Source: Candidatus Woesearchaeota archaeon
GTDB lineage: Archaea; Nanobdellota; Nanobdellia; SCGC-AAA011-G17; GW2011-AR18
Assembly: GCA_018302545.1 (NCBI GenBank)
Contig: JAGVZM010000001.1
Span: 79,033 to 143,032 of the forward strand
Length of the DNA stretch: 64,000 bases
Direction of reading: 5' to 3'
Made by a program: the position numbers and the translations under genes. The notes beneath the pieces are model-generated. The model made no database searches and had not been told where the DNA came from. It saw nothing but the letters and a program-made list of their open reading frames with translations. This document shows, in pieces, positions 21,103 to 38,746 of the stretch. Position 1 is the first letter of the stretch. Every line of letters begins with the position of its first letter.

Positions 21103-22731
21103 TTACATATCCATTCCATGAGAAGGCATACCAGGAGGCATTCCTCCCCTATCCTTAGTTCCAGCAGCTAAAACATCATCTATCCTTAATATTAATTCAG
21201 CAACTTCAGAAGCAGATTTAATTGCTTGTGTTTTAATCTTTAAAGGTTCAACAACACCTAAATCCCAAGCATTAACAACTTTACCACTAAAAACATCCAA
21301 ACCTGCCCATTTTTCTCCTCTTTCATGAGCTGCCTTTAACGCTGTTATTGTATCTATTGGATCTAAACCTGCATTTTCAGCTAAAGTAATAGGAATAACT
21401 TCTAAAGCATCTGCAAAAGCCTCAACAGCTAGTTGTTCTCTCCCACTTAAAGAAGTAGCAAATTTCCTTAAAGAACTAGAAACCTCAACCTCAGTAGAAC
21501 CAGCACCACCTACAATCTTTCCAACTTTCAAAGCAGCACTAATATCTCCTATCGCATCTTTAATTGCTCTCTCTGCTTCATCAACCACATGTTGAGTTCC
21601 ACCCCTAACTAAAAGAGTAACAGACTTAGCTTCTTTACAACCAGTAACATAAGTCATTTCTTCATCACCAAATTTTTTCTCTTCAACTAAAGCAGCATAT
21701 CCCAAATCACTCTGGCTTAATTCATTTAAACTACTAACAATTTTTCCACCAGTAGCTCTAGATAATTTTTCCATATCACTCTTCTTAATTCTCCTACAAG
21801 CATATATTTTATTCTTAGCCAAGTAATGTTGAGCTAAATCATCTATCCCTTTTTGACATAAAACAACATTAGCACCGCTTTTAACAACTTTAGTTACCAT
21901 ATCTGTAATCATTTTATTTTCCATGTCAATAAAAGCTTGCATCTGACTAGGATCAGTTATCTGTATCTTAGCATCAACTTCAGTATTTTTAATCTCTAAA
22001 GCAACATCTAACAAAGCAACCTTAGCATCTTCAACATGACTAGGCATATTAGAATGAACTTTTTCTTTGTCTAAAAGAATACCCTCTATTAATTCACTAT
22101 CTCCAATTCCAGAACCAACTTTCTTCTCTAGTTTAACATCATCAACATGAACAACAATTTTTCCATCTTTAGTTTCTATAACATGTTTAATTGCATCAAC
22201 TATTAACTTGCTTAAATTATCTTTAGCAACTTCCGCACCCTTACCAGTCATAGCAGTGCTAGCAATGTTTTTCAAAACATCTTCCTGACTAAGATTAACA
22301 TCTTGAGAAATATCTTGTAATATTAATTGAGCTTGATTAGCAGCCATCCTATATCCCTTAGCTATAACAGTAGGATGTATATTTTTTTCTAATAATCTTT
22401 CAGCATTTTTTAATAATTCTCCAGCTAAAATAACAGCAGTAGTAGTTCCATCACCAACTTCATTTTCTTGAGTCTTAGCAACTTCAACAACCATCTTAGC
22501 AGCAGGATGTTCTATTTGCATCTCCTGCAAGATTGTAACTCCATCATTCGTAACTATAATATCCCCTAAAGAATCAACTAACATCTTATCCATTCCTTTC
22601 GGACCTAAAGTTGTTCTGACAGTTTCAGCTACTAATTTAGCAGCCATCATATTGTTTCTTTGAGCCTCTCTTCCTGTAGTTCTTTGAGAACCCTCTGACA
22701 AAATAAATATTGGTTGTTGATTTTGTGACAT
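21103..22731 (-). CDS. ths: thermosome subunit (group II chaperonin)
   Basis: [24 protein letters not shown] and C-terminal [14 protein letters not shown]. Start placed at MSQNQQPIF, the internal Met of the 22791 ORF, just downstream of a TATA-like element. Confidence 0.93.
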
Positions 22732-22780
22732 TTTCTTACCTCGAATAATCCAAAAATTCATGAAAAACTTATAAGACTTT

Positions 22781-22800
22781 CTATAAAACAAAATATAAAT
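22781..22800 (-). promoter_or_regulatory. candidate TATA/BRE promoter element for thermosome gene
   Basis: Minus strand TTTATATTT/TTTTATAG about 50-60 nt upstream of the proposed ATG. Sequence-only guess. Confidence 0.25.
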
Positions 22801-32666: not shown

Positions 32667-34223
32667 ATGAACGATTCATCCCATATAGAAGTGTCAAGTA
32701 TGTCTTTAATAGGAGCTGACGCTTTTTCGCATCTAAGACATGATTCTAGTTCTTTAATTATAAAAGCAGAACTTAGTAAAAAATTGCCAGTTAAAACTCC
32801 AAATGCAACAGAAATAATAGACCACAAAAGATATTTAGAAGTTAGAGAAGAATTAAAAAAAGCAGCAACATTCGCAGGATTCGCAAATGAGGTTTCTTCT
32901 TTAGATACAATAGTTTCACAGTGGTATGAACTACAACAAAGATATGCTAAACAAGTAGTAAAAGAAGTAAATGAAGAAATCAAAGAACAAAAAGGATTAC
33001 TAGACGCAGCAAACGAAGAATTAGCAGCTGGGCAAGTTTTCATAAATGAATTTCATGATTTAAGTAAAAAACCTATAGGTCAATTAGGGATAAATGGAAT
33101 AAAAAAATATACAGAACTAGAAACAAAAGTTAGAGGTTTAGAAACAACTAGAGAAACAAGAGATCTATTACATAGAACTGTAACAAGTATCGGAAGAATA
33201 GAAGAATCATTAACTCAACTAAGAGGATTAGGAAAAGAAGCAGTACATTATGAAATTCTTTCATCTAAAGAAGCATTAGAAAAATTAGGAGAAGAAAAAT
33301 ATGATGGTCCAAAATTTGATCCATTATTGTTAACAAACAAAACAGATATAGTAGATAAATTTAATCGTGATGTAAGTACCACAGCAGTAAGAGCAGGTAG
33401 AACAGCCCAAAAACTAGAAACAAAAATAGACGTAGGCTTGGAAGATCTACCTCCAGTATTATCAGAATTAGTGAGATTACAAAGATATATCTCAGAACAA
33501 GCTCCAGAAACCAGAATACTTGCAGCTGATTTAGTTAAAACATTAGAACTAAAAGAATTAGGATCAAAAGGAATAGGGTCATATTTAGAAGATAATGAAG
33601 TTACATTTGGAGTAAAAACTAATAAAGGACCTACTGGAGCTAGATCATTTACAAGAACAAAAGCAGCAACACCAGATGCAAAAGGATTAGTTACATATAT
33701 GACCGCTAACAACCTAAAGAATTTACAAGGTCCAGATACAAAACAAGTAAATGAATTTTATTTTGGAAAAGCAATAGATTTACTAAGAGAATTACCAGAA
33801 GCATATGAAGGGTTTACAAAAGAAGAATTTCAAGGACTAGCAGCAAGAAATAATTTACCAGTAACACCTATATATATGGCTAGAAGCTTAAGTTCAGGAA
33901 AATATGATACAGACATAAAATGTATAGATCCTTCATTAGAAAAATATAAACTCAAAGAAGTAAAACCAACAGAAACACAATTAAGATACATATTAGAAGT
34001 TGTTAGAGAAGAAGGAGAAAATCAATTCGAACCAAGAAGAATAGCTGAAGTAGTAACAAGGAGGCATAAAGATTATAGAATGATTGAATTAGTAGCTGTA
34101 AAAGCTTTAGAGCAAAACCATACAAATTGGGGTTACAGACAATCAAGTTCCAATCCTATTGCATATCAAAAACTACCTAACAGTAAAAAAGTAGGAGTAG
34201 AAGCTCCTAAAACGTTTATGTAA
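32667..34223 (+). CDS. large hypothetical protein (518 aa), helical N-terminal half
   Basis: Long ORF with no recognisable catalytic motif. Immediately followed (2-nt gap) by the TGase-like ORF. Confidence 0.5.
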   Translation: MNDSSHIEVSSMSLIGADAFSHLRHDSSSLIIKAELSKKLPVKTPNATEIIDHKRYLEVREELKKAATFAGFANEVSSLDTIVSQWYELQQRYAKQVVKEVNEEIKEQKGLLDAANEELAAGQVFINEFHDLSKKPIGQLGINGIKKYTELETKVRGLETTRETRDLLHRTVTSIGRIEESLTQLRGLGKEAVHYEILSSKEALEKLGEEKYDGPKFDPLLLTNKTDIVDKFNRDVSTTAVRAGRTAQKLETKIDVGLEDLPPVLSELVRLQRYISEQAPETRILAADLVKTLELKELGSKGIGSYLEDNEVTFGVKTNKGPTGARSFTRTKAATPDAKGLVTYMTANNLKNLQGPDTKQVNEFYFGKAIDLLRELPEAYEGFTKEEFQGLAARNNLPVTPIYMARSLSSGKYDTDIKCIDPSLEKYKLKEVKPTETQLRYILEVVREEGENQFEPRRIAEVVTRRHKDYRMIELVAVKALEQNHTNWGYRQSSSNPIAYQKLPNSKKVGVEAPKTFM

Positions 34224-34224
34224 A

Positions 34225-35910
34225 ATGCCATTTCCTAAAGCAACCCTAGAATGGGCAAATGATATAAAAGAAGAATTACTATTTAGTTTAGGAACTAAAA
34301 AAGCAATAACAACTTTAGAAAGTATAATCTCTAAAGGTACAATATTTGGAGATGTAAAAAAAGCTATAGAGAAAGTATTCTTAAGAGAAACAACAGCTAC
34401 AGAAACTCCAGAACTACACCCTAGAGAAAAAAAGGCAATAGCTGCATTACTTTATTATGGAATAGGACATAGATATGGTTTTCAAGCATCATTAGAGACA
34501 AATAATTGGATGCCTTATCCACATGAATTAATGGAAGTTAACTGTTACAGTCAAGCAGTTGCTAATTTTGTTGCAACTAAAGCACTTGGATTTGACCCAA
34601 AACTAATTGAGTTTATAGGAATAAGACAAGAAAAACACACAGATCTTGGAGGACATAGTCTAGTTGTAATAAATGTTGGAACTAAAGAATCTCCTGAATA
34701 TTGGACAATAGATCAACCCCAAGGAATGTTCGGTCCAATAAGATTAGAGGATAATAAATTAACAGTAGAAAATCAAGACCAAACTTATTCTAGAAGAAGA
34801 GTAAAATCATTCAATTTCCTGTCAAAACTTGAATCAGGAGAAGAAGAAGTATTAAGTCAAATAGACTCCTTAAGATCAAATCCAAAATTAGTAATACAAC
34901 CAGGACAACGTGTTGGAATTAAAGAATTGGATAGTTGGCAAAGTGAAGAACCAATAAGCGCAGCTTGGTATATAAAATTCGAAGAGACCAATAGAAATGG
35001 TGAACAAGGGGATGTAGTCTCAAGAATATTTTTAGGAAGACCAGGAATAAAAAGTAGAGGATTAGAATATAGACTGAGTATTGGAGAAAAAGGAGATGCT
35101 AAAGAAGAAAGATTATTAGGTTATTATTGTGAAGATTTAATGTGGGCAGATTTTGTAAAGGCAATACCATTAGTTAATTTAGATTATGCAGAAGCAGTTC
35201 CATTATTAGTCGGATTGGATAATATTCCATTAGAAAAAAGATCCGAATTTGAAAGAACTTTAATGAAAGAAAGTGTAAAACCTTCAGCAAAATACAAAGC
35301 AGCATTAGAAGTAGCAAGAGAATCATATAAAAGAGCATTAGCATCAGAGTACAAAGAAATAATATTAACATTAGCAGCAGTAGAATCACTCTATCAATAC
35401 GAAAAAGGAGATAAAGATGATTACTTAACAGAAGAAGAGAGAAGAAAAGAAGTCCAAAGAATAAGAGGAAAAAATATTCTATTTTCTGAATATGCAAAAT
35501 TATCAGGAGAATTAGAACTAAGAAGAAAATCAAAAGGAACGAAAAGAAGATTAAGGATAAATAAACCAGCAGTAGTAGAATACTTAATTCAAGACAGAAG
35601 AGAAGATCCAAGAGTCAGAGCATTTTTAGCTTTAGAAACAGAAGAAGCAATGATTGAAGAAATGATATCCCACAATCCTTTATTTTTCTATGACGCAGTT
35701 GATAGGTTAATATTTTATAATAGAAGAATAAAAGGAGGAATGGATGAAATAAATAGTTTAGCAAGATCTACTTTTAAAGAAAGATATGAAGAAGTTTTAT
35801 TTGGAGGTTATACAAAAATATTTGCAGAATTCTTAGGACATTTCTCAGCAACATTACCAGAATTAAGTCTACAAAAATACAGAAGCAGTATATTAAGAAA
35901 ATTTCAATAA
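34225..35910 (+). CDS. transglutaminase-like (papain-fold Cys-His-Asp) domain protein, 561 aa
   Basis: NCYSQAVANFVATKALGFDPKLIEFIG (Cys), GGHSLVVINVG (His) and TIDQPQG (Asp) match the transglutaminase-like core arrangement. Long helical K/E/R-rich C-terminal half. Confidence 0.5.
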   Translation: MPFPKATLEWANDIKEELLFSLGTKKAITTLESIISKGTIFGDVKKAIEKVFLRETTATETPELHPREKKAIAALLYYGIGHRYGFQASLETNNWMPYPHELMEVNCYSQAVANFVATKALGFDPKLIEFIGIRQEKHTDLGGHSLVVINVGTKESPEYWTIDQPQGMFGPIRLEDNKLTVENQDQTYSRRRVKSFNFLSKLESGEEEVLSQIDSLRSNPKLVIQPGQRVGIKELDSWQSEEPISAAWYIKFEETNRNGEQGDVVSRIFLGRPGIKSRGLEYRLSIGEKGDAKEERLLGYYCEDLMWADFVKAIPLVNLDYAEAVPLLVGLDNIPLEKRSEFERTLMKESVKPSAKYKAALEVARESYKRALASEYKEIILTLAAVESLYQYEKGDKDDYLTEEERRKEVQRIRGKNILFSEYAKLSGELELRRKSKGTKRRLRINKPAVVEYLIQDRREDPRVRAFLALETEEAMIEEMISHNPLFFYDAVDRLIFYNRRIKGGMDEINSLARSTFKERYEEVLFGGYTKIFAEFLGHFSATLPELSLQKYRSSILRKFQ

Positions 35911-35933
35911 TTGATATTAAAAATAAAAAAAAT

Positions 35934-36812
35934 TTACATAAAAGAAGCTGCACTTTCTAAACTAACAGGTTCTCTAGCTGAAGTTGATCCAGATCTAGCA
36001 TAAGCTCTAGCACCTGAAACTGCAGTTTTGCTTCCTGCAACAACATAAGCAGCACCTTCAAGAATCCTTTCTGCATCCTGTTTAACAGGTTGACCATAAA
36101 TTCTTAGTTGTACTGACATTTCATATACTGTAGATTTAACTGACCTTGATTTAGTACTAGTTTTACCCTCTGCTTCTTCAAAAGAAACATTACTAGATCC
36201 AATAGCAATTACTCCTTTTCTATTTTTAATATGATTATCTTTATCTCTAAAAGTAAAACCATCTCTAGGAATATTTGTATCATTTTTATAACCCTTTCTA
36301 GTCTTAACAATAGTATAAGTAGTAGAAAGAGGTTGTCCACTAAGCCTTCCACCATAAGTCTTAGCTAATTGATCAACTTGTGCATCATAAGCAGATTTTG
36401 CTCTTTCTTTATCTAATGCAGAAACAACAAGTGCTTCTACAAAATAATGAACATCAACAGCTCTCGTAAGTTTAACATTAATTTGACTTGGATCATAATC
36501 AAACCCTTTAACTTCCTTTCCTTCTTTTTCAGACAAATCTTTTTCAGCAGCAACTACTGCAGCATCAATAGCTTCATTAATACCCATTGTACTTGTTGCA
36601 GAATATTTTAATTGATCAGAAGGTTTTCCATCTTCCAAACCAGTTAAAGTAACTTCCCAACTTCTAGATAAATCCCAATTAACATCTTTATTATCATGTT
36701 TCAAACCTGTCCTTTCTTTAACAGCAGCATTAAGTTTATCATCTAATCCTTTATGTAACTCTGCTTTCTTAGCAACATGTTCAACTATCAATTCAATTCT
36801 CTCTCTTAACAT
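35934..36812 (-). CDS. hypothetical protein (292 aa)
   Basis: ORF convergent with the TGase-like gene. No motif. Confidence 0.45.
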   Translation of the reverse strand: MLRERIELIVEHVAKKAELHKGLDDKLNAAVKERTGLKHDNKDVNWDLSRSWEVTLTGLEDGKPSDQLKYSATSTMGINEAIDAAVVAAEKDLSEKEGKEVKGFDYDPSQINVKLTRAVDVHYFVEALVVSALDKERAKSAYDAQVDQLAKTYGGRLSGQPLSTTYTIVKTRKGYKNDTNIPRDGFTFRDKDNHIKNRKGVIAIGSSNVSFEEAEGKTSTKSRSVKSTVYEMSVQLRIYGQPVKQDAERILEGAAYVVAGSKTAVSGARAYARSGSTSAREPVSLESAASFM

Positions 36813-36911
36813 AAAAAATTATGAATATCCAATATTAATAAACTTTTCTATAATCATTATAAAATTTTACTACTTGATTAGACGAAAATAAATATTAATT
36901 GTCTATATATC

Positions 36912-37058
36912 TAAAAAATAGCTCCAAATATTAACATAAATAATCCAATTAATATAAAATAAAGGCCTACAATTAATCTAAGAAAATTTGGAAAAGTCAA
37001 AATTAAAATTCCAAAGATAATATTTACAATTGCAATTATTGTTATTGTAGATACCATA
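36912..37058 (-). CDS. small hydrophobic membrane peptide (48 aa)
   Basis: MVSTITIIAIVNIIFGILILTFPNFLRLIVGLYFILIGLFMLIFGAIF has two predicted TM helices. Below the ORF-track length cutoff. Confidence 0.3.
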
Positions 37059-37108: not shown

Positions 37109-37498
37109 TTATAATTTTTGTTTACAAGAAGAACATACACCTATTAATTCAATTTGAAAATGACAGACCTCATCATCAACTAATTCACTTAAAAAATCTG
37201 CATTCTTTATTTTTATATGTTTTAATTTATTACAACTCTCACAAGTAAAATGAACATGGTTTTTTGTGTGATTAGAATAAATCTTTTTATTATTGCAAAG
37301 AAATGAATGTATCTTCATATCTTTTTCTAATGTATTAAGAAAACGATAAATTGTAGCAAGACCTATTTTCTTATTAGTTTTATTCACTTCTAAATGAAAT
37401 TCATAAGCATCAAAAAAAGATTTAAAATTTTTAACTTGTTCATACAAAAACTTTTTTTGAGCAGTCATTCTTCGCATAAATAAGAGAGGATATAGCAT
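37109..37498 (-). CDS. Fur-family metalloregulator (Zur/Fur-like)
   Basis: Winged-helix region LATIYRFL plus HVHFTCESC...CSSC metal-binding Cys/His cluster. Divergent from a ZIP transporter. Confidence 0.8.
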   Translation of the reverse strand: MLYPLLFMRRMTAQKKFLYEQVKNFKSFFDAYEFHLEVNKTNKKIGLATIYRFLNTLEKDMKIHSFLCNNKKIYSNHTKNHVHFTCESCNKLKHIKIKNADFLSELVDDEVCHFQIELIGVCSSCKQKL

Positions 37499-37564: not shown

Positions 37565-38326
37565 ATGTTAAACATTTGGCTTTATTCATTATTAAGTGTT
37601 TTTATTATAAGCTTAATCTCCTTAATTGGAATAATAAGTTTAAGTATTAAATCAAGAAAATTACAAGATTATTTACTATATTTAGTAAGTTTTTCTGCAG
37701 GTGCATTATTAGGAGACGCATTTATACATTTATTCCCAGAAATAGTAGAAGAGTTTGGTTTAAGTCTAGAAATATCTATAGCAGTATTAATAGGAATAAT
37801 TTTATTTTTTATAATAGAAAAAATAATCCATTGGAGACATTGCCATATTTTAGACAAAAAAGGATCTCACGAAAAAGAACATAAACCATTCGCAATTATA
37901 AACTTAATAGGTGATGCATTTCATAATTTCTTAGATGGAATAATAATTGGAGCTGCATATTTAATAAATATCCCCGCAGGGATAGCTACAACAATAGCAG
38001 TAGCACTACATGAAATACCTCAAGAAATTGGAGATTTCGCAGTTTTGTTACATGGAGGTTTCACAAAAACAAGAGCTTTATTCATGAACTTCTTAACAGC
38101 ACTCTCTGCAATTCTAGGAGTAATATTAGTTTTAATCGCTAGTAATTTAATAGAAAACCTATCAAAGTATTTAGTGCCTTTAGCAATAGGTGGCTTCTTA
38201 TATATAGCAGGAGCTGATCTAATTCCAGAGTTGCATAAAGAAACAACCCCCAAAAAATCAATAGTTCAACTATTATTTTTTATATTAGGAATACTAGTAA
38301 TGATGGCTTTATTATTGTTAGAATAA
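37565..38326 (+). CDS. zupT: ZIP-family zinc/metal transporter (ZupT-like)
   Basis: HEIPQEIGDFAVLLHGGF and HNFLDGIIIG are ZIP signature motifs in TM helices. Confidence 0.85.
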   Translation: MLNIWLYSLLSVFIISLISLIGIISLSIKSRKLQDYLLYLVSFSAGALLGDAFIHLFPEIVEEFGLSLEISIAVLIGIILFFIIEKIIHWRHCHILDKKGSHEKEHKPFAIINLIGDAFHNFLDGIIIGAAYLINIPAGIATTIAVALHEIPQEIGDFAVLLHGGFTKTRALFMNFLTALSAILGVILVLIASNLIENLSKYLVPLAIGGFLYIAGADLIPELHKETTPKKSIVQLLFFILGILVMMALLLLE

Positions 38327-38361: not shown

Positions 38362-38736
38362 GGCAAGGTACTTAACTACGGATCTATATGGAGATTAAGC
38401 CTTAAAAAGCTAAATTTCAGAGATTCTGAGGAAAGTCCGCCCACTACCTGTGTCTAATGACCTAGGTCCCAGTTTGGGGGTTGCTTACTTTGTAAGTTCC
38501 AGTAATGGAAGGCAACTTTAAAGAAACGAAACGCCCTATAAAATTGGAATGATGTAGCGAAGATTTTGGTGACAAAATCAAGATAACCTGCTGACGTCTT
38601 TATAGGAAACGATGAAACGAAAGATCCCAACCAGTGCAAGTCTTCGAGACGCTTAGTAGAATGTTAAGACAAAGTATCGCGAGAACTGCAAAATAGTTTT
38701 CGTTTGGCTTTGACAAAAGGCGGCTTATTCCTTGCC
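38362..38736 (+). ncRNA. rnpB: RNase P RNA
   Basis: P4 5' strand GAGGAAAGUCCGCCCAC and P4 3' strand ACAAAAGGCGGCUUAU (consensus ACAGAA.CCGGCUUA). P1 terminal helix GGCAAGG...CCUUGCC. Confidence 0.7.
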
Positions 38737-38746
38737 TAAAATATTT

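Follow-up and report, generated by a model that had tools for sequence, protein, structure and literature searches.

The LapG protease cuts its substrate, LapA, within a [T/A/P]AA[G/V] site, between alanines, in a flexible segment of the protein. Vasohibins are transglutaminase-like proteases whose site of action is the very C-terminus of a substrate protein, and a small partner protein (SVBP) assists them. CPR-C4 is a further transglutaminase-like cysteine protease, and enzymes of this kind occur in episymbiont lineages with reduced genomes. Here we describe three adjacent genes, A, B and C, from a Candidatus Woesearchaeota archaeon (assembly GCA_018302545.1, contig JAGVZM010000001.1). They occupy positions 32,667 to 36,812 of a 64,000-nucleotide (nt) stretch of that contig (positions 79,033 to 143,032 of the forward strand), which was analysed as a whole and is referred to below as the window. 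Protein B is predicted to be an enzyme with a transglutaminase-like fold, and proteins A and C carry C-terminal tails that end alike. The reading we favour, at roughly even chances, is that B docks on these tails and probably cleaves them. Our search of the literature on transglutaminase-like proteins in DPANN archaea and Woesearchaeota found no description of this three-gene module.

Calling of open reading frames (ORFs) identified A, B and C as genuine ORFs of the window. Gene A (32667-34223, + strand) encodes a soluble protein of 518 amino acids (aa), the upstream partner of B. Gene B (34225-35910, + strand) encodes 561 aa, predicted from its model to form a transglutaminase-fold thiol enzyme, and is the founding member of the family described here. 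Gene C (35934-36812, - strand) encodes 292 aa and is convergent with B, with 23 nt between the two stop codons. An original prediction, made by a model from the letters of the window, had given the same three ORFs and lengths and the same convergent orientation of C. It had placed 2 nt between A and B; the TAA stop of A (34221-34223) is followed by one base, "a", and then by the ATG of B at 34225, so the spacer is 1 nt. A is probably translationally coupled to B. The 1-nt spacing and the shared conservation of the genes both speak for a module. Hydropathy analysis found no transmembrane or signal-like segment in A, B or C, and all three are predicted to be soluble, cytoplasmic proteins. No paralogues of A, B or C were present within the window. 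Scans of the three proteins against Pfam, NCBIfam, PHROGs and PADLOC returned nothing at threshold, in agreement with the earlier statement that no function could be assigned to them, and the same family libraries returned nothing at threshold for remote homologues of B. Profile searches of PDB sequences with four alignments gave nothing meaningful. Protein A had no match in Pfam, the PDB or PADLOC; only its composition and sub-threshold matches to coiled-coil Pfam models point toward the helical protein of the original prediction.

The conservation of the module was assessed in related genomes. A search of 5.8 billion clustered proteins recovered only seven close homologues of B, at 39-55% identity. 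Every contig with a close homologue carried a gene of ~515 aa directly upstream and a convergent gene of 260-300 aa directly downstream, and the C-type gene often overlapped the 3' end of B. Six further loci were taken from GTDB contigs (one genome per species); they came from metagenome-assembled genomes (MAGs) of Woesearchaeota and Nanoarchaeota, three of them labelled "uncultured Methanosarcinales". A more distant member (P0014) showed the same A-B-C arrangement. When every ORF within 9 kb of B was compared by all-against-all BLAST across 11 independent loci, A, B and C were the only genes common to all of them (11/11, in the same order and orientation, with the A orthologue directly 5' of B each time). 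The flanks of the module differed completely among the 11 loci, and no further conserved flanking genes were found in loci of the window's subfamily. A, B and C form a fixed, conserved, self-contained module of Woesearchaeota-type DPANN archaea, and this co-conservation bears out the earlier suggestion that B works with its neighbours. As a side observation, the MAGs of loci L009, L011 and L014 are labelled "uncultured Methanosarcinales archaeon", and the closest relatives of their B proteins lie in Woesearchaeota and Nanoarchaeota MAGs, so the taxonomy label may be wrong.

The structure of B was predicted with AlphaFold2 from an 8-sequence alignment (mean predicted local distance difference test score, pLDDT, 68.6; predicted template modelling score, pTM, 0.66). 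The catalytic core, approximately residues 60-190 (34402..34794, + strand), is transglutaminase/papain-like and contains a YGF motif (residues 84-86), Glu101, Cys107 (34543-34545), His144 (34654-34656) and Asp163 (34711-34713). The last three residues lie within the NCYSQA, GGHSLVV and TIDQ motifs, respectively, all of which had been picked out in the original prediction. In the model, a helix comprising residues 107-120 begins at Cys107, His144 is located on a strand of residues 142-150 and Asp163 on a strand of residues 159-163, an arrangement that is modelled as the canonical one of papain and transglutaminases. The earlier proposal of a transglutaminase-like Cys-His-Asp core was right at the level of the fold. 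The model has the Cys/His/Asp topology of the transglutaminase-like superfamily and significant structural similarity to its solved members. The structural-match figures were 8.1 for menin, 7.8 for LapG, 7.5 for TglA, 7.3 for protein-glutaminase, 7.2 for TG3, 6.5 for PNGase, 6.4 for arylamine N-acetyltransferase (NAT), 6.2 for PeiW, 6.1 for both Rad4 and CPR-C4, and 5.0-5.1 for the vasohibins, which makes LapG the second-best match. The core is followed by a middle beta-rich domain, approximately residues 193-320 (34801..35184, + strand), with a subfamily-invariant RPGIKSRGLE segment and the superfamily-invariant residues Gln228 and Trp307. This domain may be a peptide-binding module. The C-terminal domain, residues 321-561 (35185..35907, + strand), is all-helical in the model and consists of 32% Lys, Glu and Arg, matching the K/E/R-rich helical tail described earlier; it contains a conserved F-x-D-A-x-D-R-L-x-F-Y-x-R motif and the superfamily-invariant Asp493.

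Searching 1.84 billion representative proteins with a profile of B retrieved 135 clusters (E <= 1e-3), a superfamily that divides into four subfamilies. Residue conservation was counted over 118 near-full-length representatives from all four. Cys107 was kept in 112, His144 in 109 and Asp163 in 108 of the 118, and all three were invariant in the 8-sequence alignment of the close family. The original prediction had named non-conservation of these residues as the observation that would speak against its idea; their retention in 108-112 of the 118 representatives favours it. The YGF motif was similarly well kept (Tyr84 in 114, Gly85 in 109 and Phe86 in 104), as were Glu101, six residues before Cys107 (109), and Gly170 (111). 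Gln228, Trp307 and Asp493, which lie outside the catalytic core, were invariant in a 27-sequence alignment of the superfamily. The conservation and the model together suggest that B is an active thiol enzyme with a Cys107-His144-Asp163 triad. At the sequence level, B had no match to the Pfam Transglut_core model (PF01841) at E <= 1 and fell below its gathering threshold. Transglut_core was the only Pfam model to recur in the superfamily, where it matched two of the 27 members tested (best E, 0.17), and neither the family profile nor the superfamily profile matched any PDB sequence. By sequence definitions B lies outside Transglut_core, BTLCP and the vasohibins, and among proteins with the transglutaminase-like fold it forms a new family with a new domain architecture. 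The YGF...E-x5-C signature, like the two C-terminal domains, is specific to the B family.

Both partners of B carry C-terminal tails. In an AlphaFold2 model of C (10-sequence alignment, mean pLDDT 81.9), the 47 residues 246-292 (35937..36077, - strand) are disordered, with pLDDT < 50. This tail holds a conserved block that reads R-[GS]-[AG]-S-P-A-[AG]-x-E-P-V-x-L-x5-[L/F/M]-M-COOH among the orthologues; in 9 of 11 of them the small-residue motif (S-P-A-A/G) stands 12-14 residues from the C-terminus. The tail of A, KLPNSKKVGVEAPKTFM (34170..34220, + strand), is basic and of low conservation and ends in Phe-Met-COOH. An [L/F/I]-Met ending was present in 7 of 10 A orthologues; the rest end in FI or LV. 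Among the 62 ORFs of the window with 120 aa or more, none besides A (…KTFM) and C (…ASFM) ends in a hydrophobic residue and Met. Compared locus by locus, the endings of A and C are FM/FM in the window, ELV/NLI in L016 and xLM/xLM in most others. On these few data points the two endings seem to change together, which would fit one common receptor. The shared tails and endings of A and C are a new observation that was missed in the original prediction. A separate observation concerns an ORF of 562 aa at 21103-22791 (- strand), one of only five window ORFs of at least 50 aa that end in Met: its Gly/Met-rich tail resembles the C-terminus of the thermosome (group II chaperonin).

A two-gene version of the module, consisting of a small tailed protein and a B-like enzyme, is present in other archaeal lineages and had likewise been missed. 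For remote homologues of B, the gene directly upstream on the same strand encoded a protein of 113-150 aa in all five assessable look-ups (L015, L019, L020, L021 and L022). These small upstream partners have similar strand-helix motifs, a Gly/Ala/Pro/Ser-rich tail and a hydrophobic end. A metagenome scan for one of the subfamilies (SF3) yielded 24 loci, 22 of which had the small upstream gene. The small partner and the B-like gene were the only conserved pair in the SF3 loci; a third conserved gene was sought and none was found. In 19 of the 22 SF3 partners, P-[T/P/x]-A-G is located 13-19 residues from the C-terminus and is followed by an amphipathic peptide. Over all partners, 28 of 33 had the tail motif at that position, compared with 5 of 325 other ORFs of the same loci, and 4 of these 5 were A, C or small-partner proteins, so that the enrichment supports the generality of the tails. 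The alignment of SF3 partners also contains an invariant Gln (Q111 in L031:5498-5911) within an "L-T-x-x-Q-x-x-A-L" segment, 12-15 residues before P-x-A-G. Homology of A to C, or of A to the small partners, was unsupported by hhalign and hmmsearch.

We favour a reading in which A and C would be dedicated protein partners of B, each with a flexible tail that ends in a hydrophobic residue and Met-COOH. The tail endings would dock on B, where the beta-rich or the helical domain may form the site. Once docked, the tail would present its upstream small-residue motif (S-P-A-A/G in the orthologues of C, S-T-S-A in the window) to the active site, and B would then cut the tail. Site-specific endoproteolysis is the most likely chemistry; by analogy with LapG acting on LapA, it would be a maturation or regulatory cut, and it could serve the maturation of an assembly of A and C or act as a regulatory switch. 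Endoproteolysis is favoured because LapG, the second-best structural match, cuts a dedicated substrate at a comparable motif in a flexible segment, because the same fold includes the vasohibins, whose targets are the C-termini of proteins, and a related protease, CPR-C4, from another lineage with reduced genomes, and because a dock-and-cut mechanism predicts a fixed distance between motif and C-terminus. Modification or processing, two of the three roles first suggested for the locus, is still the best reading, given the co-conservation of A, B and C in 11/11 loci. A more specific version, which we consider rather unlikely, is that the module is a previously undescribed system by which DPANN archaea process or tag proteins in the cytoplasm independently of ATP, and that it has been kept since an ancestor with two genes and through to the present form with three. 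Such a system would recognise a C-terminal "follower" signal (the small-residue motif plus a terminal peptide of ~13 residues) and remove the peptide, upon which the partner would self-assemble or be ligated. If this were true, the module would represent a soluble maturation pathway, similar to that of sortases or of LapG, and would have a family of tail-bearing substrates of its own.

Several points count against tail cleavage by B. The link between B and the tails is indirect, resting on adjacency and motifs, and the model of B is only of moderate quality. The tail of C in the window has S-T-S-A (35976-35987) in place of S-P-A-A, the orthologue in L007 also deviates, and the tail of A has no consistent small-residue motif. 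The sequences behind the counts of the tail motif (28 of 33 and 5 of 325) are related and not independent, so these counts express an enrichment, not a probability. Finally, homology between C and the small partners was unsupported (hhalign probability 3.5%; hmmsearch not significant), so the generalisation from the three-gene to the two-gene version rests on architecture and not on ancestry.

Other chemistries have to be weighed against cleavage. B might be a transamidase (transglutaminase) or a sortase-like transpeptidase that uses the tails of A and C, or conserved Gln residues close to them, to cross-link or ligate the two proteins, giving a covalently joined assembly in the cytoplasm. In fold and triad B matches transglutaminases, the invariant Q111 of the SF3 partners could be a target of a transglutaminase or a deamidase and not a bystander, and in 9 of 10 A orthologues Y500-Q501 stands just before the tail. 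The combination of a motif and a short C-terminal peptide after it also resembles a sorting signal of the kind used by sortases, and the beta-rich C could plausibly oligomerise. We nevertheless regard this alternative as unlikely: neither Gln nor Lys is invariant within the tail of the C family or close to it, the Transglut_core model gave no match at threshold, and there is no sign of polymer formation. Modification of side chains, by a deamidase (of the protein-glutaminase, Cif or OspI type) or an acyl-CoA-dependent N-acyltransferase (NAT-like), with A, C or an unrelated protein as the substrate, seems slightly more doubtful again, as it leaves unexplained why the partners in several subfamilies retain disordered tails in which a small-residue motif keeps a constant distance to the C-terminus. 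B could also be a non-catalytic scaffold or peptide-binding protein (compare menin and Rad4/XPC), with the tails serving as docking motifs for a structural or regulatory complex. The large extra domains of B would suit such a role, and the shared hydrophobic-Met endings do look like docking motifs. Inactive members of the transglutaminase fold such as Rad4 and menin typically lack the triad, though, and the retention of Cys, His, Asp and Glu101 in 92-95% of the 118 divergent representatives is the pattern of an active site, which makes a purely structural role for B improbable.

The remaining alternative concerns the origin of the module. The original prediction described the block as atypical in composition, consistent with horizontal acquisition, and one could read it as a conflict, defence or mobile-element cassette. 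The family is indeed rare and patchy, as the seven close homologues illustrate, its genomic neighbourhoods are variable, and PIN and MazE-like genes occur near the module in some loci. The composition is not atypical, however. The window, of ~29% GC, is an archaeal chromosome segment, as confirmed by a full-length archaeal RNase P RNA at 38395-38739 (+ strand; Rfam RF00373, 91.5 bits). Compared with 54 other window ORFs, the block had z-scores of +0.4 to +1.1 for total GC, -1.0 to -1.3 for the Lys, Asn and Ile content of its proteins and 0 to +0.45 for their Arg, Leu, Ser and Gly content. The GC content at third codon positions (GC3) of A, B and C was 0.089-0.125, against a mean of 0.166, and was the lowest or near-lowest of 57 window ORFs. 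Synonymous sites of the block are thus at least as AT-adapted as those of its neighbours, making its GC3 the most host-like in the window. Orthologous modules range from 30% to 50% GC, and each matches its own host locus. No relatives were detected among IMG/VR viral contigs or, by tblastn, in phage and plasmid collections, and PADLOC gave no match at E <= 0.1 for A, B, C, one small partner and three remote B homologues. The window has no tRNAs, and no integrase, repeats or tRNA were found to flank the module. Its neighbours across loci are housekeeping genes, encoding aminoacyl-tRNA synthetases (aaRSs), aIF2-gamma, ribosomal proteins and an H+-pyrophosphatase. We regard a horizontally acquired cassette as very improbable. 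The conflict role that had been offered along with modification and processing finds no support in PADLOC, and horizontal acquisition is not supported in view of the host-like GC3, the host-tracking GC of the modules and the lack of relatives in the viral, phage and plasmid collections searched. Because its composition lies within the range of the window, its GC tracks the host and no such relatives were found, we take the module to be a resident chromosomal system, probably inherited vertically, and not a recent import. The low GC3, together with the purine-rich sense strand (62% purine for A and B), may reflect high expression. Two antisense ORFs over the block (33248-33712 and 35174-35611) had been dismissed as artefacts from the start, and rightly so, because they lie opposite this purine-rich strand and none of the 10 orthologous loci has an ORF at either position.

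The folded part of C, residues 1-245 (36078..36812, - strand), was predicted with pLDDT > 90 as a two-layer alpha/beta domain in which long beta-hairpins pack on helices. It includes two dodecin-like "G-x-S-x-x-S-[IL]-D-[DE]-A" motifs, which explain a sub-threshold match to Pfam Dodecin (PF07311; E 0.0056, 17.4 bits against a cut-off of 22.5 bits). An assignment of C as a dodecin was rejected, given that the score is below the gathering threshold and that C has a multi-repeat domain of 245 residues and not a beta-alpha-beta-beta monomer of ~70 aa. An HK97-fold capsid or encapsulin shell protein was rejected too: the HK97 fold (A-domain, P-domain and E-loop) was not found over most of the chain. 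No close structural relatives of C were found, and a search of BFVD gave nothing. The partner proteins are, like B, new.

The surroundings of the module were also surveyed. An alanyl-tRNA synthetase (AlaRS)-like ORF of 837 aa lies just upstream of it in the window, and in L005 the module is near a class I Glu/Gln-type aaRS; this proximity to aaRS genes probably reflects only the gene density of small genomes. On the other side, the module is adjoined by a gene for a Fur-family regulator (37109-37498, - strand; Pfam FUR, E 1e-13), and divergent from that gene is one for a multi-pass membrane protein resembling a ZIP-type metal transporter (37565-38326, + strand). Elsewhere, this pair is not conserved beside the module. 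The Fur-like gene and C are separated by 296 nt, within which lies an unannotated ORF of 48 aa (36911-37057, - strand), MVSTITIIAIVNIIFGILILTFPNFLRLIVGLYFILIGLFMLIFGAIF, which is very hydrophobic and is possibly a small membrane protein. Near the remote B homologues, a class II Asp/Asn/Lys-type aaRS gene is convergent to the B-like gene in 4 of 15 SF3 loci (L034:7607-9148, L035:5955-7481, L040:7639-9156 and L028:2854-3870, all on the - strand). At a single locus, a 524-aa Pkinase gene (L015:2304-3878, - strand) is convergent with, and directly downstream of, the SF2 homologue P0047. Near the SF4 homologue P0041, upstream of which the contig ends, a 529-aa gene with a weak AAA_5-like match is present together with a 707-aa gene (L023:2884-6596, - strand).

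The genomes of DPANN archaea are very small, and for most of the genes specific to these lineages no function is known. A block of ~4 kb that stays intact across genomes of 30-50% GC probably does something these cells need. The analysis defines a transglutaminase-fold enzyme family (~135 clusters at 50% identity, with no Pfam model) and its obligatory partners, along with a testable recognition element, the tail motif plus the C-terminal ending, and a two-gene core in other archaeal lineages. If the tails are indeed processed, the module would add to the archaea a new type of pair in which a protease, or a transpeptidase, has its dedicated substrate, and several "hypothetical" families would be given a function at once.

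Compared with described systems, B resembles members of the transglutaminase-like superfamily (PF01841; transglutaminases, PNGase, protein-glutaminase, arylamine N-acetyltransferases and PeiW/PeiP) in having Cys at the N-terminus of a helix, with His on the strand that follows and Asp on the one after it, and differs from them in that no member is detectable by sequence. Vasohibins and CPR-C4 employ a Cys-His-Leu(carbonyl)/Ser triad, whereas B has a conserved Asp; B is also much larger and its partners are not homologous to theirs. With neither the non-canonical triad nor a sequence match, B does not belong to the vasohibin/CPR-C4 group. C39 peptidase domains, sortases and archaeosortases recognise a short small-residue motif beside an amphipathic or hydrophobic peptide, and the peptide is removed. 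Their likeness to B is a functional analogy only, since they belong to different folds and families and to membrane-associated machinery, and the C39 leader is N-terminal. Locally, protein C shares the strand-helix motif "G-x-S-x-x-S-x-[DE]-[DE]-A" with dodecin, SIMPL/BP26 and DUF74/YbjQ; it departs from dodecin in its very long hairpins and its 47-residue tail, and flavin-binding residues cannot be claimed for it. B gave no Pfam match to BTLCP/LapG (Peptidase_C93), and the PDB profile searches did not retrieve LapG. LapG is a periplasmic, single-domain, Ca-dependent protein of ~200 aa under the control of LapD and c-di-GMP, and its cut is made close to the N-terminal end of a giant adhesin. 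B, in contrast, is predicted to be cytoplasmic and has 561 aa with two further domains, and the motif in its partners lies 12-19 residues from the C-terminus. A periplasmic location of the LapG type does not apply to B, as the host is archaeal and B has no hydrophobic N-terminal segment (its maximum Kyte-Doolittle hydropathy over 19 residues, 1.37, is internal). What the two systems would have in common is a dedicated protease with its substrate encoded nearby, which is established for LapG and inferred for B, and perhaps a similar site: [T/A/P]AA[G/V] in LapA may be compared with the S-P-A-A/G and P-T/P-A-G of the partner tails of B, with S-T-S-A as the counterpart in the C protein of the window.

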